Made by a program: the position numbers and the translations under genes. The notes under the pieces are model-generated. The model saw nothing but the letters and a program-made list of their open reading frames with translations, did no database searches and was not told the origin of the DNA. A DNA stretch of 64,000 nt from Candidatus Latescibacterota bacterium (GTDB taxonomy: Bacteria > Latescibacterota > UBA2968 > UBA8231), in NCBI GenBank assembly GCA_965200315.1, contig OZ241362.1:895291-959290 (forward strand). Direction: 5' to 3'. Positions 1-14,400 of this stretch are shown here, piece after piece. Each line of letters starts with the position of its first letter. Within the stretch, counting starts at the first letter, position 1.

Positions 1-208
1 GAGCGCGTGTAAAGCTGCACTACGTCTAAATGCGACCTGTGTTTAGACCCGCGCCGGTGCAGAGCCCAGGGGGTGGGTATGTATGAGGGGGACCGGCTTA
101 CGCAACATTGGTAGGGGGAGTTCGGCGGAAAGCGGCTTGACCAATCCGAATGAGGCGGGTTTATTTGCGCCGCCGCGCAAAACCGCTGATTGGGAAAGGG
201 GTAACGCC

Positions 209-655
209 ATGTGCAGCCATATCCGGTTCCTGCTCTGGGGGATGGTCCTATTGGGTGTGGCCGAGTGTACGCCCGCCCTACCCCCAAGACCGCTGCACAT
301 CCAAATCACCGGGGAAGAGTACACCTGGCAATTCCGCTACCCAGGCCCCGACGGCGCGTTGAACACTGCCGACGATATAGTCAAGCGAGGTAAGGAGTTA
401 CACCTTCCACTTGGTATAGAAATTGAACTCGAATTGACGAGCCGAGATTACATCTATACCTTCGCCCTACCCCATCTCGACCTGCGTCAGGTAGCCGTGC
501 CCGATTTAACCTTTGCGCTGGCCTTTACCCCACAAACCACCGGCGCATTCGCCTTCGTCGGCGACCAAATGTGCGGCTTTGAACACGAGTCGCTCAACGG
601 CCGCTTGGTAGTCGAGCCTCCAGCAGCTTTCGTCGCTTGGCTGACGGGGCCGTAA
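209..655 (+). CDS. small membrane-anchored cupredoxin-like protein (cytochrome/quinol oxidase subunit II C-terminal-domain-like, CuA ligands incomplete)
   Basis: ORF 83..655. Internal ATG at 209 is preceded by GGAAAGGGG. Hydrophobic N-terminus IRFLLWGMVLLGV. YTWQFRYP...DYIYTFALP...CGFEH follows the COX2 cupredoxin pattern, but the His, first Cys and Met ligand positions are Tyr, Gly and Leu. Confidence 0.5.
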   Translation: MCSHIRFLLWGMVLLGVAECTPALPPRPLHIQITGEEYTWQFRYPGPDGALNTADDIVKRGKELHLPLGIEIELELTSRDYIYTFALPHLDLRQVAVPDLTFALAFTPQTTGAFAFVGDQMCGFEHESLNGRLVVEPPAAFVAWLTGP

Positions 656-664
656 AGTCAGCCA

Positions 665-762
665 CCCCTCAGTCCAACCGTATCTCCTCCCCGGCCTCTT
701 GGCTGCGATAGATCCCATCGAGGATTTTCATCACCTGTAGGGATTGCTCCGGCGGCACCGGC
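665..762. repeat. direct-repeat copy A: orphan duplicate of the last ~31 codons plus stop of the oxidoreductase gene
   Basis: Block 669..762 aligns to 2611..2704 with 88/94 identities. The last 67 nt (696..762 vs 2638..2704) are perfect. On the minus strand it reads ...PVPPEQSLQVMKILDGIYRSQEAGEEIRLD*. Confidence 0.9.
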
Positions 763-773
763 TGTAGATGTAG

Positions 774-1418
774 TTAAGAGCTTTGGCTGTTTGGAAAGAA
801 CAACCGTTTCAACCAAGCAACAAGAACATCTACTTCTGGGACATTGGGATCGAGGAAGCAGGCGGTAATGGCCGTGCCGAAAGGCCGCCCTGGATCTTCT
901 TGCCAAGCAAGCCAAGTATGGACGATCGCCTTGGTCTCGTCTAGTGGTTTGAAACGCTGCTCGCCTTCAGGAATAGTGGCGACACTACCTTCCGCATGGT
1001 CAAAAAGGATGTTGGGTTGCGGAACGAGAAAGCGCAGAAAATCTTCCAAAATGCCGCTTGTTCGATTATTCGGCATAATCCAGATGCCCAATCGCGGTAA
1101 AAGTGTTCCTCGCGGAGGGTAGAGGATCGTTCCGTCTGGGCTCGGTTGAGCAGGCACCTCTTGGTATCCGACACCGATGATTCGATTTCGCACCGACTGC
1201 CAACGACTACTTATGTCCGTATCGGCGTCAACGACCACCCCAATAACGTCGCCTTCCTCGCTTAATTTGAGTCGGACGCCAAGACTCTCAATGAGTTTTT
1301 CGACATTGCCATGGCTTTCCACTCCATCAAGGTGAGGAATGCCGCGATTCCCGCAAATATGCTTCAGAACATGCTCGTCGTCAGTCCCTTCCACCATAAG
1401 CATTTTCCCGTTTGCCAT
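774..1418 (-). CDS. TOPRIM-like (DUF4435/DUF3226/RloB-type) putative nuclease effector
   Basis: ORF 774..1496. ATG at 1418 lies 1 nt after the ATPase stop (1420). MLMVEGTDDEHVL (conserved Glu), VVVDADTD (DxD) and GILEDFL fit the TOPRIM/OLD-type pattern. Confidence 0.6.
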   Translation of the reverse strand: MANGKMLMVEGTDDEHVLKHICGNRGIPHLDGVESHGNVEKLIESLGVRLKLSEEGDVIGVVVDADTDISSRWQSVRNRIIGVGYQEVPAQPSPDGTILYPPRGTLLPRLGIWIMPNNRTSGILEDFLRFLVPQPNILFDHAEGSVATIPEGEQRFKPLDETKAIVHTWLAWQEDPGRPFGTAITACFLDPNVPEVDVLVAWLKRLFFPNSQSS

Positions 1419-1419
1419 G

Positions 1420-2538
1420 TCAGCGCACCTCGACTTGGTCGCGCGTTGCAATGGCCAGTTCGTTTTCTGATAGCACAGTGGGAATAGTGTCCTCACCCCG
1501 GCGGGTCAAACGTATAAGTACCCCTTCTTTAGGTGCTTCGGCCGCCGCTTTCTGAAACGCCTCGACCGCGTCCCAACTATGGGACGTTGCAAAGACTTGA
1601 ATATCGAGCGTGTGCGCCAATCGGAATATCGTGCGCCACACATCTAACTGTACGGTGTGATGCAGGCCATTTTCAAATTCATCCACCAACAAAAGTCCCC
1701 CACGAGCGTTGACGAGGGAAAGAATTATTCCGAATAGCCGATTCAGTCCGTCGCCAAACGAGCGCAGTGGAACGGGTCGTGCGATATGGTCTGCGCGTAC
1801 AATGGCGGTAGGGTTCCTATGCGTGATGCCAACCATAGAAACGGCTGAAATCTCAGGAACGATGATGCGCAACGCTGCAACGACATCCTTCTCCCTGTCA
1901 GATAGCGCGATTTTATCCCACAATGGCCCTAACATTCCCGTGCCTTCGCCGCCGTAGGGACTGACGAAGATACAGGGCATCCGTCCGTCAGAGGGTTCAG
2001 AAAGCTCCCGGTGCATTGGGTAATGGTGTCTGCCAAAACGCTCGAGCAGGAGATTTCGCGTTCCTCCTTTCGTCTCGACGCTCAAAGCAGGGATACCTTC
2101 TGATTCATCCAAGAGGCTTGGTTGCTGAGGGACTAACCGATACTTTCCTGCCGAGTCGCGTTCCTCTGATAGCCAGCCCAAGCGCATCGTCATGCTCATT
2201 GGGCTCGACCTGCTACTGGTTGAAATAGCGATCGGCTTAGGGTTTTCTGAAAGCAGGGGAAATCCATAGAACAGCCCCGAAACCAGAAATAAGCTCTCAT
2301 GATCAGCGGAGCGCCCCCCTTCCTCTGCTTCTTCGATATTTTCTTCGCGGTATCTGAGTATATCGTAAATCACGTCAAGCGCAGCATTCTTGGCGAGAAT
2401 ATGCAGCCCTTCAAGAACAGATGATTTCCCGCTGTTGTTCCTTCCGGTAATCAGGTTCACGCGCCCCAAGCCACAGATGGTCAACTCGCGGAATGCGCGG
2501 AATCGCTCCAGCGTTAAGCTCTCAATTTTGAGACCCAT
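1420..2538 (-). CDS. ABC-type AAA ATPase (AAA_21/AAA_15-like; AriA/AbiLi/OLD N-terminal-domain-like)
   Basis: Walker A GRNNSGKSS, signature-like SFGDGLNRLFG, Walker B LLLVDEFENGLH, H-loop ATSHS. ATG at 2538 with AAAGGAAAA upstream. Confidence 0.8.
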   Translation of the reverse strand: MGLKIESLTLERFRAFRELTICGLGRVNLITGRNNSGKSSVLEGLHILAKNAALDVIYDILRYREENIEEAEEGGRSADHESLFLVSGLFYGFPLLSENPKPIAISTSSRSSPMSMTMRLGWLSEERDSAGKYRLVPQQPSLLDESEGIPALSVETKGGTRNLLLERFGRHHYPMHRELSEPSDGRMPCIFVSPYGGEGTGMLGPLWDKIALSDREKDVVAALRIIVPEISAVSMVGITHRNPTAIVRADHIARPVPLRSFGDGLNRLFGIILSLVNARGGLLLVDEFENGLHHTVQLDVWRTIFRLAHTLDIQVFATSHSWDAVEAFQKAAAEAPKEGVLIRLTRRGEDTIPTVLSENELAIATRDQVEVR

Positions 2539-2605
2539 GGCATTTTCCTTTCACTCATTCCTTCATTTCGCGACAACATATGCTAACCGCTCGAACATGA
2601 TTGGC

Positions 2606-2704
2606 CCCCTTCAGTCCAACCGGATCTCTCGCCCCGTCTCTTGGCTGCGATAGATCCCATCGAGGATTTTCATCACCTGTAGGGATTGCTCCGGCGGCAC
2701 CGGC
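2606..2704. repeat. direct-repeat copy B (functional 3' end of the oxidoreductase gene)
   Basis: See copy A. All 6 mismatches fall in the 27 nt next to the stop codon and give QETGREIRLD* versus QEAGEEIRLD*. Confidence 0.9.
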
Positions 2705-3666
2705 GAGGGCCGCCCTTGGGCAATCGCCGCGGCGAACTCCACGCATTCCTGCGCGTGGGCTTCTAGGCCGTCGTACATCAGCATGAGCTTGCGGTCGTAC
2801 TGTTGTCGGGTCTGGTTGTTGCTCTCGCAAATCGAGCACTGAGGCCAATGCGCACCGCCTCGGGTGCCGTAGAGCCACATCTGCATGTCCTCGCCTTGGG
2901 TCGGGTGATGCAAAAGCCAACTCACCTCCAAGACGAGCGTCGCACCATTGTCAAAGCGCACAAAGGCCGCGGCAAAATCCTCGACATCGTAGTGGGCTGG
3001 AATCGTCTGGCGACCCCATTGACTGAAAGCCCCTTCTTGGTGCGCCAATTCAGCGCGGGCCACGCCCGAAATAGCCACGGGCTCAGGATGCCCCATAAAC
3101 CACAAGGTCAGGTCGAGGATGTGAACCCCAATGTCGATGCAGGGGCCGCCGCCGCTGTGCTCCTTGAGAATGAACCCGCCACCGGTCGGCGCACCGGCCC
3201 GACGCAGCATCCAGCTACGAGCGTGGTAGATGTCGCCGAGTGCGCCTGTGTCTATCTCGGCTTTTAGCGCACGGGACGATCCCTGAAAGCGAAAGTGCTG
3301 CGCCGTCATCAACTCTTTGCCCGAAGCGTCGCGTGCCGCGATCATCTGGCGAACAGCCTCGGGCGTGGGAGCCAAGGGCTTTTCGCAGATCACGTGCTTG
3401 CCAGCCGACAGCGCGGCAATGGCCAATGGAGCGTGATACATGTTGGGCGTGCAGATGTCGATAATGTCGATATCGGGGTCGCTGAACAGTGCCTCCGGGT
3501 CGGTGTGCAGCTTGGTGACCCCGTTTGCTGCGCCAAAGCGCTGCAGCGCCTCCTCGCTAATATCGCTGCCAGCGATCAACTCGGCCTCGCTAGAAGCCTC
3601 CCAGCCGGGGATGTGCGTACCGGCAATTCCGCCAACGCCGACGATACCTACTTTGAGCGTACTCAT
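2611..3666 (-). CDS. Gfo/Idh/MocA family NAD(P)-dependent oxidoreductase
   Basis: N-terminal Rossmann motif KVGIVGVGGIAG, then EKP motif (VICEKPLA) and a typical C-terminal alpha/beta domain. Confidence 0.85.
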   Translation of the reverse strand: MSTLKVGIVGVGGIAGTHIPGWEASSEAELIAGSDISEEALQRFGAANGVTKLHTDPEALFSDPDIDIIDICTPNMYHAPLAIAALSAGKHVICEKPLAPTPEAVRQMIAARDASGKELMTAQHFRFQGSSRALKAEIDTGALGDIYHARSWMLRRAGAPTGGGFILKEHSGGGPCIDIGVHILDLTLWFMGHPEPVAISGVARAELAHQEGAFSQWGRQTIPAHYDVEDFAAAFVRFDNGATLVLEVSWLLHHPTQGEDMQMWLYGTRGGAHWPQCSICESNNQTRQQYDRKLMLMYDGLEAHAQECVEFAAAIAQGRPSPVPPEQSLQVMKILDGIYRSQETGREIRLD

Positions 3667-3722
3667 GGCTTATCCTTGTTTTTGGTTGTGGTTTGATCTA
3701 CGCGAAAGAGTCGTTGTTAGAT

Positions 3723-4475
3723 TTAGATCCGCGTCAGGGCTTCGGTCGGCATCCACCCGCCGAGGCCGTTGGCCAGCCTCACCAGCATCCACTCGCCCTC
3801 CTGCCGCACCAAGCGCACCTTCGTCCCTTCGTGCGCCACAAAAACCTCGGTCTGCCCGAGGTCCGGGCCGGAATACGCACGCACCTCGGCCACCGTGACG
3901 ATAGCTTCGCTCGTCTGCGCCTGATGGTGGAGGCGCGTCCCCAGCCAGAGCGCGGCCCCAACGCTCAGCCCCGCACAGAGCAAAACCCCGCCTAGCCACA
4001 GCGCACCGGGGCGCGTCTGCGCGAACAACCACCGCACCCCCAAGACAAAGACCGCGAAAAACGCCACCGCGAACAGCAGGCTGAGCTGGTTGAACGTGGG
4101 CCAGAAATAGGCGGCCACCAGCGCGGCTACTAGTGCGCCGAGGCCGTCCTGAGTTTGCGGGTCGCGGTCCTTCTTTACGAGGTTGGCGAAGCGCAGATTG
4201 GCTTCAACGTCCTCGTCGTGCGGCAGCAAGCGCTGCGCCCGCTCGTACCAGAGAATCGCTTCGCCCAGCTTCCCGGACTTGAAGCAGGCATTGCCCAGAT
4301 TGTAGTAGAGCCGCCCGTCTTGCACCCCAGCGTCCACCACCTCCAAGTAGCTGCGCCGCGCCGCCGCAAAATCCCCAGCCTGATAGAGCGCATTGGCCTC
4401 GTTGTACTGCCCAGCCGCAGCCCCGGCGTGGAGTTGAGTGCCCAGCAGGAGTAATAGCGCCAGTGCGCGCATCAT
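3723..4475 (-). CDS. batE: BatE-like TPR + C-terminal SH3 domain protein
   Basis: Signal peptide, TPR (YYNLGNACFKSGKLGEAILWYERA), membrane segments, SH3-like tail (EGEWMLVRLANGLGGWMP). ATGA overlap with batD. Confidence 0.65.
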   Translation of the reverse strand: MMRALALLLLLGTQLHAGAAAGQYNEANALYQAGDFAAARRSYLEVVDAGVQDGRLYYNLGNACFKSGKLGEAILWYERAQRLLPHDEDVEANLRFANLVKKDRDPQTQDGLGALVAALVAAYFWPTFNQLSLLFAVAFFAVFVLGVRWLFAQTRPGALWLGGVLLCAGLSVGAALWLGTRLHHQAQTSEAIVTVAEVRAYSGPDLGQTEVFVAHEGTKVRLVRQEGEWMLVRLANGLGGWMPTEALTRI

Positions 4476-6250
4476 ATCCGCTTCTCCAAACCCGCGATCA
4501 CCTCCCCGGCCAAGCGCCGTGCCGCCGCCCGGTCCGTCGGCGGACCGCCCGCGGGCGCAAAGCGCGCAAAATCGCAGCGCGTTAGCAGGTCGCGCAGGGA
4601 TTGGATCGTCTCAGCCGCGACTTGGCGCGCCGCTAGGGCCTCGGCACAAACCTCAATGGTCAGACCAGCCGCGGCGAGGTTGAGGCGGTCGGCCACAAAC
4701 TCCAGCACCGCGGCGCGGACCTCGCCGTAGAACTCGGCCTCGGTGCCAGCCTCAAGCAAGGCATCGGCGCGGGATAGGCGGCGGCCTGCTTCGCCTTTGG
4801 CCCGGCGCCGGCGCGCGTACGCCACATCGCCCTGCAAGCGCCGCTGGTGGCGTTGCCACACAAGCAGGGCCAAGAAGGCGAGGGGCAGTGCGCCCTGCCA
4901 GGTCCAAAACCAATAACGCTCGTGTAGCATAAGAGCCACGACGAGGGCCTCGACGTCGGGCTTGATGTAGCGAATGTCCTCTCCTACGGCTTCGATGTCG
5001 CGCCGGCTTAGCCCGTAGCTCACCCTTTCCTCCTCGGCACTCCCCTCGCTGTGAATGGTGATGGGCTCAGATTTGAGGACCTCATAGCGCGCTTGGTGTG
5101 GGTCGAAGTACGCAAAGCGCAGCGGCGGGATGTTCAGGGTGCCGCCCTGCTCGGGAATCAAGATGTACTCGAAGAGGCGGCGACCTCCGTACACGCCGCT
5201 GGTGATCCGCTCTTCTTCCTCGACCTTGGGATCGTAGAGCTTGACGCCAGCGACAGCATCGACTTGTAGAGGCTGCACCGCAGCCATGTTGCCCTCGCCC
5301 TCGACCAGCACGCGCAGCGTCACCGGATCCCCGGCCGCAACTTGGGTCGGCGGGGCCGCAACGCTGAGTTGGAAGCGCCCCACCGCGCCGGTAAATTCCG
5401 CCGGGCGACCCTGTTCGGGCAGCGGTAGGACCTCGATTTGCAATTCCTCGCTTTGCAGGAGCACCGAGCGAGAGCGGCCAAAGAACGGATCGCCGGCGAA
5501 GAAATCGTCGAGCAGGCCGCCGCGCCGCGAGCGCTTTTGCGGAATGTCGCAAGAAACGGCCAATGTGCCGACAGCGTGAGTCCCCGCGCCGGTGGGAAAA
5601 AGGGCCACGCGCCGCAGCGGCGCGACGCTGTAAGACACGCCGCCGCGCACCTCCTGATGCGACTCTAGCTGTTGGGCGACAAAGAGGTCTTCGGTCCAAA
5701 ACCCGACAAAGGTCGGCAGCTTGTTGAAGCTGACGTTGCGCGGTTGGATGCGGTAGAACAGGTCGTAGGACACGGTGACCTGCTGCCCCACATAAGCCCG
5801 CTGGTGGTCGGCGCGTGCCAACACGAAGATGGGACTCTCTCCTTGGCCGGCTTGCGCGCTGCTAGTGCCGCGGACGATCTCGACAGTAATGGGCTTGGTC
5901 TGATAGCGCTCACCGTCCATTTCTAGCTGGAGAGGACCAATAGTAAAGGTGCCAGCCTGCTTGGCATAGAGAGCATACGCTAGCTCGCGGGAGTAGCTAA
6001 CGTTGGAGAAGTTGCTCATCTCCATCCGCGTACTAGTCGCTGGCCCTTCGACGTGGAAATCCTTTAGGTCGAATGCTGGCGTCACTTGGGGCAACTGCTC
6101 GTCGGAGGTGATGCGGAGCGTCAGGCGAATCGGCTCGCCCTGACTAGCGCGCGTGCGATCGACAGACGCCTCGAACTGAATCGCCGCCGCCGCCTCGCTA
6201 GATGCCGCCAGCGCACACAGCACTAGCGGGATGGTTAGCCGCGCTTTCAC
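4472..6250 (-). CDS. batD: BatD-like oxygen-tolerance protein
   Basis: 592 aa. Signal peptide, repeated Ig-like beta modules, C-terminal TM plus helical tail. Position in the bat array. GTG start overlaps the batC stop. Confidence 0.65.
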   Translation of the reverse strand: MKARLTIPLVLCALAASSEAAAAIQFEASVDRTRASQGEPIRLTLRITSDEQLPQVTPAFDLKDFHVEGPATSTRMEMSNFSNVSYSRELAYALYAKQAGTFTIGPLQLEMDGERYQTKPITVEIVRGTSSAQAGQGESPIFVLARADHQRAYVGQQVTVSYDLFYRIQPRNVSFNKLPTFVGFWTEDLFVAQQLESHQEVRGGVSYSVAPLRRVALFPTGAGTHAVGTLAVSCDIPQKRSRRGGLLDDFFAGDPFFGRSRSVLLQSEELQIEVLPLPEQGRPAEFTGAVGRFQLSVAAPPTQVAAGDPVTLRVLVEGEGNMAAVQPLQVDAVAGVKLYDPKVEEEERITSGVYGGRRLFEYILIPEQGGTLNIPPLRFAYFDPHQARYEVLKSEPITIHSEGSAEEERVSYGLSRRDIEAVGEDIRYIKPDVEALVVALMLHERYWFWTWQGALPLAFLALLVWQRHQRRLQGDVAYARRRRAKGEAGRRLSRADALLEAGTEAEFYGEVRAAVLEFVADRLNLAAAGLTIEVCAEALAARQVAAETIQSLRDLLTRCDFARFAPAGGPPTDRAAARRLAGEVIAGLEKRI

Positions 6251-7035
6251 CAGTCCCTAGCCTGCGCCTTGCCGGTGGCACGAAACCGCCGCTGCTGAGC
6301 TTCCAACTCGCGGTTCTTGAGAGCATCCATGAGCTGCTGAGCTTCCTCGGGACTCATGGAGCGCTGCTCGGCAGGCTGCTCCTCCTGCTGTTGGTCCTGC
6401 TCACTTTGTTGCTGTTGCTGTTGATCCTGTTGGTCCTGCTCCGAATTTTGCTGTTGCTGTTGTTGGTCCTGTTGCTCTTGCTCTTCTGAATCCTGCTGAT
6501 TCTCCTGATTCTCCTGATTCTCCTGATTCTGCTCTGAATCTTGCTGCTGTTGATCTTGATCCTGCTCTTCTGAATCGTCCTGCTGTTCCTGCTGTTGCTG
6601 CTCCTGCTGCTCCTGCAATTTCTCCAGCGCCAGTTCCAAGTTCACCTTGGCATCCTCGTCGGTCGCGTCTAGTTCCAGCGCCTGCTTGTACGCGGCGACG
6701 GCCTGTTCAAACGCCTGCTGCTGAAAGAAGCTATTGCCCATGTTGTAATGGGCTTGCGACTGGATTTTTTTCTTTTCGGCGCTGAGCACCCGCTCAAATT
6801 CCCGTAGGGCTTGGTCGTATTCGCCGCGCTTAAAAAGCGCGTCCCCGACGTTGAAGTGCAGCTCGGGCGCGTCGGGCCGGTCGAGGAGGGCGTCTCGGTA
6901 GAGCTGTAGAGCCTGATCGTATTCGCCACGCTGGTAGTGCTCCAACGCCTCGGCGCTCTTGCTGGCCACGGGATCGCCCACGGTCGCTCCGCAGACGACC
7001 AGCCAGAGCCCCAAGAGGCCCCACAATGCACCCAT
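6247..7035 (-). CDS. batC: BatC-like TPR protein with long Q/E/D-rich tail
   Basis: ORF 6247..7131. ATG at 7035 overlaps the batB stop (TAATG). TPR repeats (HFNVGDALFKRGEYDQALREFERV), then ~90 aa of Q/E/D low complexity. Confidence 0.65.
   Translation of the reverse strand: MGALWGLLGLWLVVCGATVGDPVASKSAEALEHYQRGEYDQALQLYRDALLDRPDAPELHFNVGDALFKRGEYDQALREFERVLSAEKKKIQSQAHYNMGNSFFQQQAFEQAVAAYKQALELDATDEDAKVNLELALEKLQEQQEQQQQEQQDDSEEQDQDQQQQDSEQNQENQENQENQQDSEEQEQQDQQQQQQNSEQDQQDQQQQQQSEQDQQQEEQPAEQRSMSPEEAQQLMDALKNRELEAQQRRFRATGKAQARDW
6496..6531. repeat. 4 x 9-bp tandem repeat (ctgattctc) inside the batC Q/E-rich region
   Basis: Read directly. Encodes QENQENQENQ on the minus strand. Confidence 0.9.
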
Positions 7036-8060
7036 TAGGCGAACCGCCCCTTCCACTCGCGGGCCTGCACCCGCGCATCGCCTAAGAAAGCCTCGGCGAA
7101 GAAACAGCAAATTGCCAACAATAAGGGCCATTGGAAACGCTCCTGATAGCGGGTGAGGCGGGTAGAGCCGATCTCGCGCTGATCCATCTCGGCGATCTGG
7201 CCGTACAAGGCATCCAATTCCGCGCCGCCCAAGGTAGTGCGAAAGTAATCGCCTCCCGTCTCCAGCGCCATGTCCTGTAAGGTGCTCTCGTCGAGCCGGG
7301 TTTTGACGTATTGGCCGCGCTTGTCCTTGTGAAAGATCACGCCGCCGCCTTCCTCCTCAGTAGGGATAAGCTCGCCGTCAGGCGTCCCCAACCCCAAGGC
7401 AAAGATACGCACACCCTGTGCGGCGGCTGTCTGCGCCGCGGCCAGCGGCTGCCCCACGTGATCCTCGCCGTCGGTGAAGAGCACGATGGCCTTGTGCTGG
7501 CCTTCGCCCTCCTCAAACGAGCGCACGGCCAGCCGCACGGCGTCGCCAATGGCCGTCCCCTGGACGGGTATAGCCCCGGCGTTGAGCACATCGAGGAACA
7601 GCCCCACCGAGCCATAGTCAGTCGTCAGCGGGCACTGGACAAAAGCCTTGCCAGCAAAGACTACCAGTCCGACCCGATCACCTCGGAGCAAGTCCAACAG
7701 GCCGCGAATCTGGTGTTTGGCCCGCGCCAAGCGGCTCGGCTTGACGTCCTCGGCCTGCATGCTACGCGATACGTCGAGCACCAGCATCACGTCCACGCCC
7801 TTGCGCTCGGCCATTTCGAGTTGCGTACCGAATTGGGGGCCGGTCAGGGCTAGGATCGCAAAGAAGGTCCCCAGCCCCAATAAGACAAGTTTTCCCACTT
7901 GGCGACCCCGGCTCAAGTTGCGGGTCAGTTTCTCGGCCAGCGGGCCGCGGGCAAAACGCGCCAAGGCGCGGCGACGCGCCCAGAGCACCCAGGCAAAAAA
8001 GGCCGCCAAAAAGGGCAGCAACAACAGCAACCAAAAATTGTACAAGTTCGCAAAGCGCAT
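7035..8060 (-). CDS. batB: BatB-like von Willebrand factor A (VWA) membrane protein
   Basis: N-terminal TM pair, VWA MIDAS DVSRSM...TDGED, C-terminal TM. Confidence 0.75.
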   Translation of the reverse strand: MRFANLYNFWLLLLLPFLAAFFAWVLWARRRALARFARGPLAEKLTRNLSRGRQVGKLVLLGLGTFFAILALTGPQFGTQLEMAERKGVDVMLVLDVSRSMQAEDVKPSRLARAKHQIRGLLDLLRGDRVGLVVFAGKAFVQCPLTTDYGSVGLFLDVLNAGAIPVQGTAIGDAVRLAVRSFEEGEGQHKAIVLFTDGEDHVGQPLAAAQTAAAQGVRIFALGLGTPDGELIPTEEEGGGVIFHKDKRGQYVKTRLDESTLQDMALETGGDYFRTTLGGAELDALYGQIAEMDQREIGSTRLTRYQERFQWPLLLAICCFFAEAFLGDARVQAREWKGRFA

Positions 8061-9116: not shown

Positions 9117-10029
9117 GAGCCTCAGCAGCGCGGGTTGCGACCGTCTCCTCAATAGCGCACAGTATGGCCAAGCCGGCATCCGGTGCGCGCCGGGCCGCGT
9201 CTAGCGCCGGATGGAAGCGAGCGAACTTCACCAAGTCAGCCGCGGCCAAATAGTCGATAATCTGCTGCCTAAGCGAGTCATCTACTTCAGCCCTCTGCAA
9301 GGCGTTCGCCAACTCAGACGTGGTCTGCTCCATCGCTTCAACGGCCAAGCTTTCCTCCAAGAAGCGACGCAGGTTTTCCGCCAGCAGCGAATAGTATGTT
9401 TTGAACTCGCCGCGCTCCAACAGGCCACACGCGGCAATGCGTGCGAATTCAGCCGCGTAGTCTAGCGGCTCGGGCGGAGGCGGAGGCTCCAAGGTGCGGG
9501 TGCGGCGACGCCACAGCCAGACGCCGCCGAGCGCGCAAAGCACCAACGCCAGCAATCCGATTGCGACGACCACCCACAACGGCACTCCCCCGTGGACGGG
9601 CACGGGCGGCTTGATGTCGCGCAGTTGGTCCTCCCCTTCGCTCCGGGCACTGATGACTTCTATGGCTAGGGGTTGGGTGGCGCGCAGGAGCGTGTCGCCC
9701 GCAACGTTGACAAAGGGCACGGCCACGGCCGGCACTTCGTGTAGCCCCAGCTCGTAGAGGCGCAACTCGCATTCTTGCGCGAGCTCGAAGCCGGCTGCGA
9801 CCTCGCGTTGGTGCCAGCCGGCGCAGCGAGGGGCAAAATCCCGCAAGAGCTGGAGCAGGTCCGGGGCCTTGGGACGCACGGTGGCGTCGTGGTGTAGCGT
9901 CAACGTCAGGCGGATGGGATCGCCGACCCGAGCAGCCGCGGTGTCCAAGACCGCCTCGGCCCGAGGGGCTTGGGCGTGTAGCCCCTCGGCGAGGACCACT
10001 AGCGCGGCGAGCAGACCGCCGAGATACAT
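9097..10029 (-). CDS. DUF4381-like membrane protein with extra N-terminal beta-rich domain
   Basis: Signal peptide, BatD-like N-terminal half, single TM (LWVVVAIGLLALVLCALGGVWLW), helical tail. Position between the transporter and batA. Confidence 0.5.
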   Translation of the reverse strand: MYLGGLLAALVVLAEGLHAQAPRAEAVLDTAAARVGDPIRLTLTLHHDATVRPKAPDLLQLLRDFAPRCAGWHQREVAAGFELAQECELRLYELGLHEVPAVAVPFVNVAGDTLLRATQPLAIEVISARSEGEDQLRDIKPPVPVHGGVPLWVVVAIGLLALVLCALGGVWLWRRRTRTLEPPPPPEPLDYAAEFARIAACGLLERGEFKTYYSLLAENLRRFLEESLAVEAMEQTTSELANALQRAEVDDSLRQQIIDYLAAADLVKFARFHPALDAARRAPDAGLAILCAIEETVATRAAEAHAEHPV

Positions 10030-11444
10030 TACGGACTGTCAGCGCCGCCGTCGTCGGGGTCTTCGCTGCTGGCGGCGGGTACGGCCGGCTTTTTGGGAGC
10101 TTGCGCCACGTCGTCTATGTCCAAGTCCAACTCGGCGAAGTCGTCGCTACTCACCACGTACACCGCGTCGTCGTCGTCCTGTTGCAGGTACGAGGTTCCG
10201 GCAGTTCCGCTGAAACGCGCAGCCAGCAAGGTTTGCCCTGCGCCGAGGAGTTCAATACTGAAAACAGAAGTGGCCTCGGCGGGCAGTTCCTCGGCAAAAT
10301 TCTCGACTTCGAGCTGCTCTAAGTCGTTCAGGAGACTGTTGATCTTCCACGATTTGGCATCGCGCCCCATAGGCTCGGATAAATGCCACACACCGCTCGT
10401 ATCCTTGTCAGCCGCAAACGCGGTCGCAGCCCCGCGCGTCAGGACGATGCGCTCAACCTGCTCGCGCTCAAAGCGCAAGGGCTTTTTGTCGCGCAGCTCG
10501 GCGATGCCCTTGGTCAGCTCTTGCACCAGCGTCGAATCAACCAAGAAGACTTGCGGCCGGCTGGCGTCGCGCGCGTACCAACGGCCCTGTTCATCCTCAC
10601 CGCCAATGGCCAAGCGCTTCTCGGCCCGGTCTTCGCCGACGAGCAGGGCGATCTCCACCTGCGCCGCGCGTTCCCCCAAGCCATAAGAGGCCAAGTCGTC
10701 GGCATCGGGCTCTTCGGACGCAAAAGCCGCGATCTCGGCTTGGTTGATTTTGTCGATCAGGCCGTCCACCGCGTCGGCGTTGGCCCGAGCGACTACCGGC
10801 TCGCGCATTTGCCAGCCGGGCTCGGCCTGCGCCAGCACGGTCTCGCCGCCTGTGCCCCACCGCTGCACCTGCATCACCTCGTCTTTGGCAAAGGCCAGCA
10901 CCCGGCGGTCGCGCAGGTCAAAAGCGCGCTTGTCGAGGTTGTCGAAGCGCCAAGCGCGCACCGCGAAGATCGCGGGATTGTCGCCTTGCAGTTGGGCGTA
11001 GGTGAAGCGATCGGTGGGGCTGTCCGAGCCGAAAGCCACTACCTGCTCGGCACCGTCTGCGGTTTGCAGCCGCACCTTGAGCCGCGGCGCGTCGAACCCG
11101 TATTGCACGGCTTCCTCGGTGCTTGCAGCCGCGCTATCGACGATCACCTTTTCCCGCTCGCACTCGCGCAAATTGCGCAAGTAGCGCTCTACGGCCTCTT
11201 GGTCTGCGCCGTCGGTCACCGGCGCGCTCAGGTTCCAGCCGCTCGCCCCCTTGTCCAACACCAAGGCATCGTCGCCGCGCAACAGCTCGAGCCGCTGGGC
11301 ATCATCGTCCTCAAAGGCGAATAGCTGCTTGGATTGTTCCGCTTCTTGGCGGCGCTCCTCGCCGCCTTTGATCTCGTAGAAATAGACAAAGGCCAACAGC
11401 ACCACAAAGACGGCGCCGATCACTGCATTGGTCTTGAATTTCAT
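10029..11444 (-). CDS. DUF4340 domain protein (GldG-associated)
   Basis: N-terminal anchor MKFKTNAVIGAVFVVLLAFVYFYEI and repeated beta-rich modules. ATGA overlap with the upstream GldG-like gene. Confidence 0.6.
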   Translation of the reverse strand: MKFKTNAVIGAVFVVLLAFVYFYEIKGGEERRQEAEQSKQLFAFEDDDAQRLELLRGDDALVLDKGASGWNLSAPVTDGADQEAVERYLRNLRECEREKVIVDSAAASTEEAVQYGFDAPRLKVRLQTADGAEQVVAFGSDSPTDRFTYAQLQGDNPAIFAVRAWRFDNLDKRAFDLRDRRVLAFAKDEVMQVQRWGTGGETVLAQAEPGWQMREPVVARANADAVDGLIDKINQAEIAAFASEEPDADDLASYGLGERAAQVEIALLVGEDRAEKRLAIGGEDEQGRWYARDASRPQVFLVDSTLVQELTKGIAELRDKKPLRFEREQVERIVLTRGAATAFAADKDTSGVWHLSEPMGRDAKSWKINSLLNDLEQLEVENFAEELPAEATSVFSIELLGAGQTLLAARFSGTAGTSYLQQDDDDAVYVVSSDDFAELDLDIDDVAQAPKKPAVPAASSEDPDDGGADSP

Positions 11445-14400
11445 GCTAGCTCCTCTTGTACAAAGACCTTTTTAATCCACACGAGAATGGCCGCGTTGAC
11501 CACGAAGACTGCGGCGTAGAGCAGTTGGACCGTCTCGTTGGGAATCAGCGAGAAACCAAGGCTGGCACCGGTGAAAATCGTCAGCGCGACCACGCCGGCG
11601 CACAACCCTGAAAACGCCAAGCCGGCTTGCCAAGCCCACGCCGCGTGCCGATAGAGGCCGTAGCCAATGGCTGCCGAGGCCAAGGCCGCGATCAGTTTGA
11701 CCTCGCCCTCAAAGATCGCCCCCTCGCTGGTGGCAATGATGCCGCTGATGAAAAAGAACATCGCATTGCCCCAGAAGGTGTACACCAGCCACGACACAAA
11801 ACCTTCGGCATAGGTCTGATAGCCGCGCCTAAGCACCATGACCATGCCCGACAAAGCAACCGCAAACGGCACGATGAACACCGAGACCCAGAGAATAACC
11901 GCACCTTGATTGCCGATCAGGTTGATGGGGTTAAAGGCCGGTTGCTTGTCGGCGATGGTCAGGCGGTCTTCATCCTCGGTGAGCCAACTGACGCTGCCGA
12001 TGAATAGCTCGCCATTGGCCTGCTGAGCAAAGTACTGGTTGGAGGCAAAATCCGCGTCGCCAATGACCACCAGTCGCGTCCGTCCCTCGCCCTCGGGTGC
12101 CAAGCTGGTGTCGGCTGCCGCAGAGACGGCCACGCCCAGCGGCACCGGGCCGCTCAGATCGACTTCCGGGTCGAAATCCACCTCGCCGCCCTCGCCCATT
12201 ATGGGCGCTAGGTCCGCTTCGCCCCAACTGCTTTTGTGGGTATAGGCCAGCGCGGCGATGTCCGGCTCCTTGAGCCGGTGTTCAGTCATCTGCACCGAGC
12301 GCGCCAGCGGGAAAAAGCTCATCGTGCCGGCCGATAGCTTTGCGGTGATCGGGTGCTCTCCGTAGTTGATAACCACCGGCACGGAGGCATCCGCGCCAAA
12401 GAGCTGGCCCAAGCCGCTCAGATCGACGACAAAGTCCTGCCCCAGCTCGATCGAGTACTCGTTCAAGAGCGCTTCGAGCCCGGTCGGCTGGCCTGGATCG
12501 AGCAAAAACAGCGCACTGCCCCCGCCGGCCAAGTATTGCCGCAGCACTTCGGCCTCGGCCGCGGCAAAGCGCTCCTGAGGTGCCAAAACCACCATTAGTG
12601 TAGCGTCGTCGGGCACCGGATCGGCGAGCGTCAGCTCTCCCTCGACCGCGAAGTTGAGCTCCTTGAGACGGCCTTTGAGCGTGGAATAGCCCTGCTCATC
12701 GACTTGGTCGAGCTCGGCCTCGCCGTGGCCGCTGGTGAAATAGGCCCTTAGCTCGCGGCCTTTGAGCGCCTTGAGAATGGCATTGCTCAACGCCTCTTCG
12801 CTCTGGGCGGTAATGCGCTCGGTGCGCACCTGCCCTTGGTCGATCACCTCGACGATTGAAGTCCCCCGCTCGCGGATATTGTTCTGCTCGACGCGCAGCC
12901 GATTCTTCTGAGGATCGAGCAGCTCGTAGTCGAAGTTAGACGACACATAGCTGTATTCCTTTAAGAGATCCTCAAAGCGCACGTTTTCCATCTCGCCCAT
13001 GAAAGTCTTGACGTTGACGTACTGGCCGTGCTCTGCGAGGGGCGCGAGGAGCCGGTGGGTGTCGCCCGAGAGCGTAAACAGCGCGTCGGCCGTCATGTCC
13101 TGGCGGAGGTGGTAGCGGTCGCCGAGGAAGTTGACCAGCGCGGCAATGCCGAGCGAAATCACAATGCCCAACCCGGCCGCGCTCAAGTCGGCCAAGCTCC
13201 AGCGCCCCTTGCGCGAGACGACCACAATGCCGACCAAGGCGATTAGCCCCGGGTAGAGCACCACGCTGAGCCAGAAGATCCATTCGCCGTCGCTTTCGGT
13301 CAGGGCGATGGGGTTGTGGCCCGGTTCGCGGGGGCGGATCGAGATTAGGGCCTCGTCCTCGGCCAGCCAGCTCAAGGCGTTGAGCACCAAGTCGCCGTTG
13401 CCCTGGACGCCGAAGTACTGGTTGGTGGCAAAGTCCGAATCCCCAAAGACCACCAAGCGGCCCCCCGCCTCGGCGTCTCGGGCTGCGACAGCCAAAGACA
13501 CCGGCCCGGGCTGATCGACGCCCTCGTCGAGCTTGACCGTCTGATTGCCCTCGCTGGTGAGCACGCTCAAGTCGGTTTCGGCCCAACCGGCCTCCGACGT
13601 CTGGACTAGGATGGCTCCCTCGCGGCCGCTTTGCTCGTCAAAATGCACTGAGCGTCCAAGTTGGAAGAAGGTCATCAGGCCCTGGTGCTTGCGCGTTACT
13701 GGATGGTCGCCGTAGGAGAGGGCGACCGGCGTGGTAAAATCGAGGCCAAAGAGCGAGCCAATGCCGCTGGTGTCGATGACGAAGTCGTCGCCTATCGCCA
13801 CGCCCCACTCGCCCAACAACTCTTCCAAGCCGCTGTCGGCGAGCGGGTCCAAGAGCAACAGCAGGGCACCGCCTGCTGCTAGGTAAGAGCGTATGGCCTC
13901 GACCTCCACCGGGAAGAAGGGCGTGCGCGGGCCAGCGATGACCAGCACGGCGCAATTTTCGGGCACCGCCCCCTCGCGGGCGAGGAAGAGCGAATCCTCA
14001 ACCGCGTAGTCAATTTCCCCCAATTGGGCCTGTAGCTGCTCCAGCCCATCGGGTTGGTTTGCGAGTTGGCGCTCGCCGTGCCCCACGGTCAAGTAGATCC
14101 GGTCTTGGCGCTCGCGCGTGAGCTTGAGCAGCGAGTTGACGATCTCGCGCTCTTGGAGCTCGGTGATTTGCTGTTGCTTGTCGCCGCTTTCCAACACCAG
14201 CGTGTCGTAGCGGCGGATGCCGTAGGCTTCAGTGCGGAGCGGATCGCGGTCTGGGTCGATGAATTCGTAGCTAAAGCGAGTATTGTACGTCTCGAACTCG
14301 GCCAGCAGCAGCTCGAGTTCGGCGTTTTCACCTCCCTCCATAAAGGCGAGGGCGTGAACGTCCCGGTCCAGCGCCTTGATCGTCTCCACCGTCAAGTCGG

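Follow-up and report, generated by a model that had tools for sequence, protein, structure and literature searches.

A PDC-M38 pair of an OLD-like ABC ATPase and a putative TOPRIM nuclease, probably a defence module, recently acquired at a Latescibacterota hotspot

Two adjacent genes of a candidate anti-phage system, here called A and B, lie within a 64,000-nucleotide stretch of the genome of a Candidatus Latescibacterota bacterium (contig OZ241362.1 of assembly GCA_965200315.1, positions 895,291 to 959,290), which we refer to as the window. Gene A (1420-2538, minus strand), identified from its open reading frame (ORF) and translation, encodes a 372-residue ATP-binding cassette (ABC) ATPase of the OLD/AAA_21 type, with a Walker A motif GRNNSGKSS, a signature-like SFGDGL, a Walker B motif LLLVDEFENGLH and an H-loop ATSHS. 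Gene B (774-1418, minus strand), read in the same way, encodes a 214-residue DUF3226 protein with the motifs MVEGTDDE, VVVDADTD and GILEDFL, and its ATG starts 1 nucleotide (nt) past the stop codon of A (TGAcATG). The GC content of the pair is 0.50-0.54 against 0.61-0.69 in the flanks, and GC at third codon positions (GC3) is 0.56 in A and 0.51 in B against 0.73 in the adjacent gene. The pair is bracketed by two direct repeats of 98 nt that are 93% identical (665-762 and 2607-2704), and exactly two genes, A and B, are found between them. An earlier note, made from the sequence alone, had described the ATPase and its motifs, the small protein 1 nt downstream with its three motifs, the AT-richness of the pair and the direct repeats, and all of these are present on the DNA as described, the genes on the minus strand. 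It had not seen where the repeats come from: the final 98 nt of an oxidoreductase gene are present twice. This gene, a GFO_IDH_MocA oxidoreductase (OX; 2611-3666, minus strand), flanks the pair on the left, and a COX2/cupredoxin-like gene (83-655, plus strand), convergent with OX, flanks it on the right.

In Pfam, A matches AAA_21 (E = 1.8e-20) and AAA_15 (3.3e-18), with weak matches to SMC_N and AAA_23, while the only Pfam match of B at E <= 1 is DUF3226 (PF11536; E = 1.1e-65, 221.7 bits against a cut-off of 27), which covers profile positions 2-207 of 208. E-values of this order for AAA_21, AAA_15 and full-length DUF3226 mean that the sequence features are not due to chance. Among the PADLOC models of defence systems, A is matched best by PDC-M38A (PDLC04611, E = 1.9e-85, with residues 5-372 aligned to positions 2-383 of the 383 in the profile), followed by AbiLi over its full length (PDLC02336, 3.4e-59), AriA (2e-23), GajA (1.4e-12) and HEC-01A (6e-12). 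The AriA models (2e-23 and 1e-18) each align as two partial stretches and score far below PDC-M38A and AbiLi. PADLOC matches of B are confined to PDC-M38B models (2.7e-50 and 4.7e-37), the better of which, PDLC04624, aligns at positions 14-218 of 220 with residues 5-207. Neither Pfam nor PADLOC gave any match of B to DUF4435, RloB, AriB or AbiLii at E <= 1, or to HEC-01B or DUF4276. In NCBIfam, B has no model and A has only sub-threshold matches of its N-terminal P-loop region (RecF, PtuA, Rad50), that to RecF reaching 34 bits where the cut-off is 172 and covering the first 46 residues only.

PDC-M38 is one of 145 "phage defence candidates" (Payne et al. 2024, bioRxiv 10.1101/2024.01.29.577857), curated via guilt-by-embedding inside known defence systems, namely restriction-modification (RM) type I, BREX or DISARM loci, and the supplementary table of that preprint carries the entry "Assign as candidate PDC-M38" for two cassettes. 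By its profile matches the pair is therefore a PDC-M38 and DUF3226 member, that is, one of a catalogued candidate anti-phage family and not a new kind of system. It is another of the known OLD/PARIS-like dyads of an ATPase and a TOPRIM protein, and is neither PARIS nor AbiL. The profile searches that the earlier note called for place both proteins. Its proposal of an ABC/AAA_21 ATPase with a small TOPRIM-like partner, a "split OLD" architecture, agrees with the PDC-M38 matches and with the nearest solved structures (below). By contrast, its PARIS/AbiL-like label does not hold as membership, its statement that the effector belongs to no assignable family is superseded by DUF3226 and PDC-M38B, and its suggestion of an undescribed variant gives way to the existing PDC-M38 entry.

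The family of B consists of stand-alone proteins of about 200-230 residues, with 2353 clusters at 50% identity (E <= 1e-3). We examined conservation in 104 diverse homologues, 35-60% identical to B, and in a narrower set of 40 closer ones. Residues invariant in the 104 include E10, G111, W113, P116, N118, G122, E125, K163 and P176; G11, D14, D64 and A65 are at least 90% conserved, and D66 is the majority residue, being invariant among the 40 closer homologues. An AlphaFold model of B built from the 104-sequence alignment (pLDDT, predicted local distance difference test, 96.4; predicted TM-score, pTM, 0.91) superseded a mediocre earlier model from the 40 close homologues (pLDDT 73). It falls into two parts, the N-terminal half (about 1-131) being TOPRIM-like and the C-terminal one (137-213) helical. 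In the first half, a strand (5-9) leads to E10 and is followed by a helix, a strand, a helix, a strand (58-63) leading to D64-A-D66, a helix and a strand (109-114), after which E125 opens the next helix; the all-helical second half bears K163. In a Foldseek comparison with the Protein Data Bank (PDB), the C-terminal regions of the Xanthomonas and Burkholderia class 2 OLD proteins ranked first (6njw, 6njv, 6njx, 6nk8), at E = 0.02-0.09 and TM-scores (TM) of 0.36-0.46, under the usual 0.5. The retron Eco2 RT-Toprim protein (9lm3) came fifth and AriB (8v46_D, 8ux9_A) shortly behind it, and the pLDDT 73 model gave the identical ranking. A Foldseek search of viral structures (BFVD) yielded no meaningful match.

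The catalytic region of Burkholderia (Bp) OLD comprises a Toprim part (390-504) and a helical part (505-594), about 205 residues together; E400, D455 and D457 belong to metal A, E404, T506 and E508 to metal B, and K562 comes from the helical domain (PMC6755086). The order of residues in B (E10, D14, D64, D66, E125, K163) is that of E400, E404, D455, D457, E508 and K562 in Bp OLD. Motif order and the structures that rank first make it probable that B is an OLD-type catalytic region in minimal, stand-alone form.

We mapped OX, A, B and the COX2-like gene in the loci around OX orthologues of species-representative genomes. The close relatives number 25, in all of which OX is 91-96% identical and the TPR-OX synteny is shared; 23 of them are loci from the genome collection and two (L004, L006; loci are numbered with the prefix L) are chromosomes derived from metagenomes. 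In ten of the 25 (L004, L006, L009, L010, L012, L014, L018, L020, L021, L022) A and B occupy the gap between OX and the COX2-like gene, and from the other 15 the pair is absent, which answers the call for a survey of carriers. The gap is empty, at 30-33 nt, in L007, L013 and L016, and short (0.3-0.5 kb) and free of the pair in L011 and L025. It holds HEC-01 alone in L008, L015, L017 and L023. HEC-01, here a 408-residue AAA_21 ATPase (1.7e-174) with a DUF4276 protein of about 200 residues (6e-81), also stands in tandem some 25 nt after the PDC-M38 pair in L006 (6674-8235), L010 (10957-12795), L012 (10941-12793), L018 (10970-12792), L022 (10982-12810) and probably L021, so that it occurs in 9 or 10 of the 25. 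This tandem may be a functional arrangement, or the two systems may merely share a hotspot.

Other cargo of the same gap includes a retron-type RT-Toprim gene (PADLOC RT-Toprim_I-C, 3.7e-223) in L004 (6987-8687) and L046 (13133-14947), a C5-methylase with a type II restriction enzyme in L046, fragments of type III RM in L019 and L024, and a Schlafen/AlbA_2 protein in L024. L005 (2446-4147), a second assembly of the L004 type, has RT-Toprim as well, and in both of these loci the gene lies immediately downstream of PDC-M38. L010 carries an IS1595-family transposase (13514-14389) well downstream of the pair. All cargo of the gap has a GC content of 0.45-0.58, and the flanks of 0.61-0.66. The gap between OX and the COX2-like gene is thus a lineage-specific defence hotspot bounded by two core genes. 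The neighbourhood had previously been called a housekeeping one, which is true of the two flanking genes and not of the gap between them, where variable defence cargo resides.

The 98-nt repeats are a scar of the acquisition of the cassette. Two copies of the segment are present only in the window genome and in near-identical Logan assemblies; relatives have one each, at the end of OX. The proximal copy (2607-2704, minus strand) is the 3' end of the functional OX (ending in ETGREIRLD before the stop codon). It is of the donor type and came with the cassette: it matches the OX 3' ends of relatives less completely than the distal copy does, and continues into a spacer of the kind found before A in relatives with the cassette, conserved block (GTTCGCGTATATTGTCGCAAGATGAAGG) included. 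The distal copy (665-762, minus strand; ending in EAGEEIRLD) is the orphaned native OX 3' end and the insertion scar proper. It matches the OX ends of relatives over its full length and runs into the native OX-COX2 spacer as at empty sites. The right-hand junction (763-773, minus strand) is CTACATCTACA, set in the context TAA, CTACATCTACAGCC, GGTGCC; its final GCC also fits the sequence just before the repeat, at 2705-2707. Downstream of B, only CTAC is common to the window and the ten relatives, where the sequence leads into HEC-01; in the window, about 10 nt of unrelated sequence are joined to the OX segment 98 nt before the OX stop. The rest of the right junction beyond CTAC is filler or an illegitimate join. 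An independent assembly (L003) has the identical duplicated structure.

The simplest reading of the repeats is recombination from a relative into an empty site. A donor relative with the order OX-A-B, with or without HEC-01, would have recombined into a genome with an empty gap, the left crossover being homologous and inside OX, and the right join illegitimate and just past B; a homologous left crossover combined with an illegitimate right join would leave the OX tail duplicated. The divergence of the genes agrees with such recombinational acquisition, since it is incongruent between A and OX: L004 and L012 have an OX 96% identical to that of the window, and an A only 78-79% identical. The nearest A is that of L014 (84%), whose OX is the most distant (93%). 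Within the carriers, L004 and L012 share A at 97% identity and B at 81% (A at 4890-5999 and 9160-10266, B at 6001-6645 and 10268-10915, respectively). This mosaic of A and B alleles suggests recombination breakpoints between or within the genes, that is, swapping of effectors. The cassette was thus acquired recently by recombination, with the 98-nt scar as its mark. Vertical conservation of the pair with host-like composition, which would have spoken against a defence module, is not what we see: the pair is polymorphic in presence and absence, diverges incongruently with its flank and has a non-host GC3.

We considered whether the repeats could be att sites or transposon ends and rejected this, given that there is no integrase, that the repeat is found only in the window genome and that the distal copy continues into the native spacer. 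None of the 11 Latescibacterota carrier loci examined showed an integrase, nor did the cassette of the window, and the only transposase was the IS1595-family one of L010. Two Logan contigs of 1935 nt (L001, L002) were considered as circles and also rejected. Both of their ends fall inside the repeat, the start at its position 38 and the end at its position 30, and their length is exactly that expected from a linear assembly break within the shared part of the repeat.

The 72-nt spacer from the OX stop to the start of A (2539-2610, minus strand), compared by alignment with the OX-to-A spacers of the ten relatives, is part of the incoming cassette. A purine-rich stretch precedes the ATG of A, and a block of about 30 nt (window 2550-2600, minus strand) is conserved 5' of A in every cassette, reading GTTAGCATATGTTGTCGCGAAATGAAGGAAT in the window and GTTCGCGTATATTGTCGCAAGATGAAGGAAC in the relatives (L004-L022). 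This upstream block may be the cassette's own promoter, 5' untranslated region or regulatory site. Scanning for consensus elements turned up nothing like a sigma-70 promoter upstream of A, and promoter and terminator hits were at background level; the scan is blind to non-sigma-70 promoters. No Rfam family matched in window positions 1-5000, the upstream block included. Farther along the window, a TPR protein (6247-7131, minus strand) of a BatD/VWA/TPR cluster has a long low-complexity tail rich in Q, E and D (QQQEQQDDSEEQDQDQQQQ), visible as a dip in GC to 0.51 and an AT skew of -0.5.

The pairing of A with B is conserved across phyla. Every Latescibacterota carrier has A just before B with the 1-nt spacing kept, and the two are separate ORFs in the window and in all relatives. 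We examined seven distant loci (a Plesiomonas megaplasmid, a 13-kb Acinetobacter plasmid and five IMG/VR contigs) in which B is 28-39% identical; in all seven, a homologue of A (31-36% identical) lies directly upstream of B on the same strand. Homologous pairs are also carried by very small plasmids (4-40 kb) of Acinetobacter, Citrobacter and Klebsiella, beside replication genes. On the Plesiomonas plasmid (L087; NZ_CP027853, 246302-248046) the pair is near genes annotated as tail protein X and a VgrG/Pvc8-family protein. On two prophage-like IMG/VR contigs (L091, L092) it ends a module of baseplate and tail-fibre genes, and in L092 it stands beside a fused restriction-methylase gene. Such positions next to tail genes suggest accessory (moron) slots of prophages.

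Dyads of an OLD-type ABC ATPase linked to a TOPRIM protein are viewed as forming a broad class of conflict systems (PMC12839542), and the window pair shares features with several of them. It has the two-gene order of PDC-M38, ATPase then small protein, with both models matched over their full length and no structural difference; it comes from a metagenome-assembled genome of uncultivated Latescibacterota and lies outside any RM, BREX or DISARM locus. PARIS, which responds to anti-restriction proteins such as Ocr, is likewise a split dyad of a sensor ATPase and a TOPRIM effector. A matches the AriA models (2e-23), and AriB is among the solved structures nearest to B, with an LLVEGxxD N-terminal strand that aligns, although its TM is only 0.2-0.3. 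AriB, however, has about 305 residues against 214 in B, no DUF4435 or AriB profile matches B at E <= 1, and AriA has about 480 residues (53-55 kDa; PMC11464382) against 372 in A. Being shorter, A is probably missing some of the coiled-coil inserts from which the AriA hexamer is built. AbiL of Lactococcus has the same two-gene architecture and its AbiLi model covers A in full (3.4e-59), but AbiLii, which is predicted to be OLD/TOPRIM-like (PMC13064643), and B belong to different effector families, with no AbiLii or RloB match in B.

With the OLD proteins of classes 1 and 2 (P2 Old, Bp and Xanthomonas (Xcc) OLD, GajA), B shares the size and, as modelled, the Toprim/helical layout of the catalytic region, as well as the order E, E/D, DxD, E, K, and A shares the OLD-type ABC motifs and a GajA match (1.4e-12). 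ATPase and nuclease are fused in those proteins, whereas they are two ORFs in the window, and the structural likeness is distant (TM 0.36-0.46). Gabija combines GajA with GajB, a UvrD-like helicase, and the window cassette has no helicase gene in or beside it. HEC-01, an ABC ATPase with a DUF4276 TOPRIM-like protein (Payne et al. 2024), has the same dyad design and occupies the same hotspot in sister genomes, but differs in ATPase subfamily (A against HEC-01A, 6e-12) and in the Pfam family of its effector. The motifs VEGxxD and DxD/DSE of DUF3226 and DUF4276 line up; at a probability of 2.8% in a profile-profile comparison we make no claim that the two families are homologous.

Taken together, we consider it probable, with appreciable room for doubt, that the pair forms a two-gene defence module of the PDC-M38 family, acquired horizontally and made up of an OLD-like ABC ATPase with a TOPRIM nuclease. 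A defence function is likely from the profile matches (1.9e-85 for A, 2.7e-50 for B) and from the other defence systems found at the same site in sister genomes, and to this extent the suggestion of the earlier note that the cassette is a defence module is borne out.

How such a module would work can be pictured from its better studied relatives. In PARIS, a hexamer of AriA sequesters AriB until a phage anti-restriction protein causes its ATP-dependent release and tRNA-Lys is cut (PMC11464382, PMC13064643). For P2 OLD, destabilisation of a tetramer is reported to open the TOPRIM site, with cutting of tRNA (preprint 10.64898/2026.07.10.737580). In vitro, the class 2 Bp OLD both cleaves DNA and nicks it (PMC6755086), and a class 1 OLD of Vibrio cholerae is described as DNA-nicking (PMC12392090). 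By analogy, A and B would be translationally coupled and their products would form a complex, in which an oligomer of the ATPase would keep the small nuclease inactive and serve as the sensor of infection. The trigger would come from the phage, as a protein or as nucleic acid of aberrant structure, and in concert with the binding or hydrolysis of ATP would free or open the nuclease. A two-metal TOPRIM site, with E10, D64 and D66 at metal A, D14 and E125 at metal B, and K163 contributed by the helical half, would then cut nucleic acid. Its substrate may be tRNA, like that of PARIS and P2 OLD, or else DNA, like that of class 1 and 2 OLD and Gabija; the cutting would keep the phage from replicating, and the infected cell would probably be lost in the process (abortive infection). 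Complex formation, trigger, substrate and abortive outcome are all things we infer from these relatives. A bolder idea, possible but clearly the less probable way to see the family, is that DUF3226 proteins are the OLD catalytic region reduced to a free-standing minimum of about 210 residues (Toprim and helical domain), and with their dedicated ATPases make up a distinct fifth class of OLD-like immune systems with a trigger and substrate of their own, the frequent HEC-01 tandem perhaps being a case of cooperation between two dyads and not just of shared location.

Several observations weigh against a functional defence module with a TOPRIM nuclease. There are no experiments on any PDC-M38 or DUF3226 member, and in the literature searched for DUF3226, PF11536 and PDC-M38 no main-text mention was found, PDC-M38 appearing only in the supplementary table of the Payne preprint. 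In the only assay published for HEC-01, which has the sister architecture, no defence was seen (Payne et al. 2024). The Foldseek likeness of B to OLD and AriB is weak (E 0.02-0.2, TM 0.36-0.46). PDB sequences were searched with B by itself and with two profiles of B, and no hit was significant; of the relevant ones the AriB N-terminus scored best, at only E = 0.39, where the first strand of B, kkvLlvEGkDDehV in the profile, aligned with KKRLLVEGRHDRSH. The comparison of the DUF3226 and DUF4276 profiles mentioned above was not significant either. With scores this weak, the TOPRIM assignment of B rests on motif order and the ranking of hits and not on a significant score. The B family is also rare in phage genomes, with none in INPHARED, none in PHROGs and five contigs in IMG/VR. 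Finally, B looks interrupted or truncated in three of the ten carrier relatives. In L020 (about 10316-10700) a deletion fuses the N-terminal half of B to the C-terminus of a HEC-01 ATPase, and L009 (10293-10936) and L010 (10476-10946) have apparent frameshifts in B, for which error of long-read assembly is possible. The broken B in three carriers therefore points to dispensability, or, in two of them, possibly to assembly error.

The same decay of B is typical of toxin-antitoxin (TA) loci, and the pair might accordingly be a selfish TA or addiction module, with B as the nuclease toxin and A as the ATPase antitoxin, serving post-segregational killing or the stabilisation of mobile DNA with no dedicated antiviral role. 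The tight coupling of the genes, the homologous pairs beside replication genes on 4-40 kb plasmids and the behaviour of PARIS itself as a type II TA pair (PMC13064643) all fit this idea. We nevertheless regard it as unlikely: the pair is chromosomal here, at a site whose other occupants are RM, retron and HEC-01 systems and not plasmid or insertion-sequence backbones, and its family was found by embedding in RM type I, BREX or DISARM loci. TA behaviour is, moreover, compatible with abortive defence.

Somewhat less probable still is that the cassette rides along inactive, as the remnant of a recent transfer, either unexpressed or decaying in the window genome. The imprecise insertion, the broken or truncated B of L009, L010 and L020 and the consensus scan without a sigma-70-like promoter upstream of A could be read in this way. 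In the window, however, both ORFs are intact, span their profiles end to end and retain every motif residue, the identical protein pair is present in independent assemblies, and the conserved upstream block travels with the cassette; the promoter scan would miss non-sigma-70 promoters, and its hit count was at background.

A housekeeping or accessory DNA-repair pair acting at stalled forks or gaps, like RecF (an ABC ATPase) with RecR (which carries a TOPRIM domain; Aravind 1998, listed as a reference in PMC11464382), is very improbable, for although RecF is the best NCBIfam match of A, yet over the first 46 residues only and at 34 bits against 172, and weak SMC_N and AAA_23 matches exist in A, the site is empty in three close relatives and holds other cargo in others, GC3 is non-host and divergence incongruent with the flank, B matches only DUF3226 in Pfam and keeps the full catalytic-type set of acidic residues and the lysine, and the strong matches of A and B are to defence-candidate models only.

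As a candidate, the defence module that we favour is solid: the comparative evidence is unusually good, and the acquisition left a clear scar. It leaves current concepts unchanged, and its value is incremental: another dyad pairing an ABC ATPase with a TOPRIM protein will not surprise a specialist. If the pair defends against phage, it would be a validated addition to the large group of ATPase-nuclease systems that includes OLD, PARIS and Gabija, and a sizeable orphan family, DUF3226, with its 2353 clusters, would gain a function. B is unusually small, about the OLD catalytic region alone, and could be a handy model of how an ABC ATPase gates a TOPRIM nuclease. For the organisms themselves, the locus documents a defence hotspot in the core genome of an uncultivated phylum, and its clear 98-nt scar shows how a cassette passed from one relative to another without any integrase.

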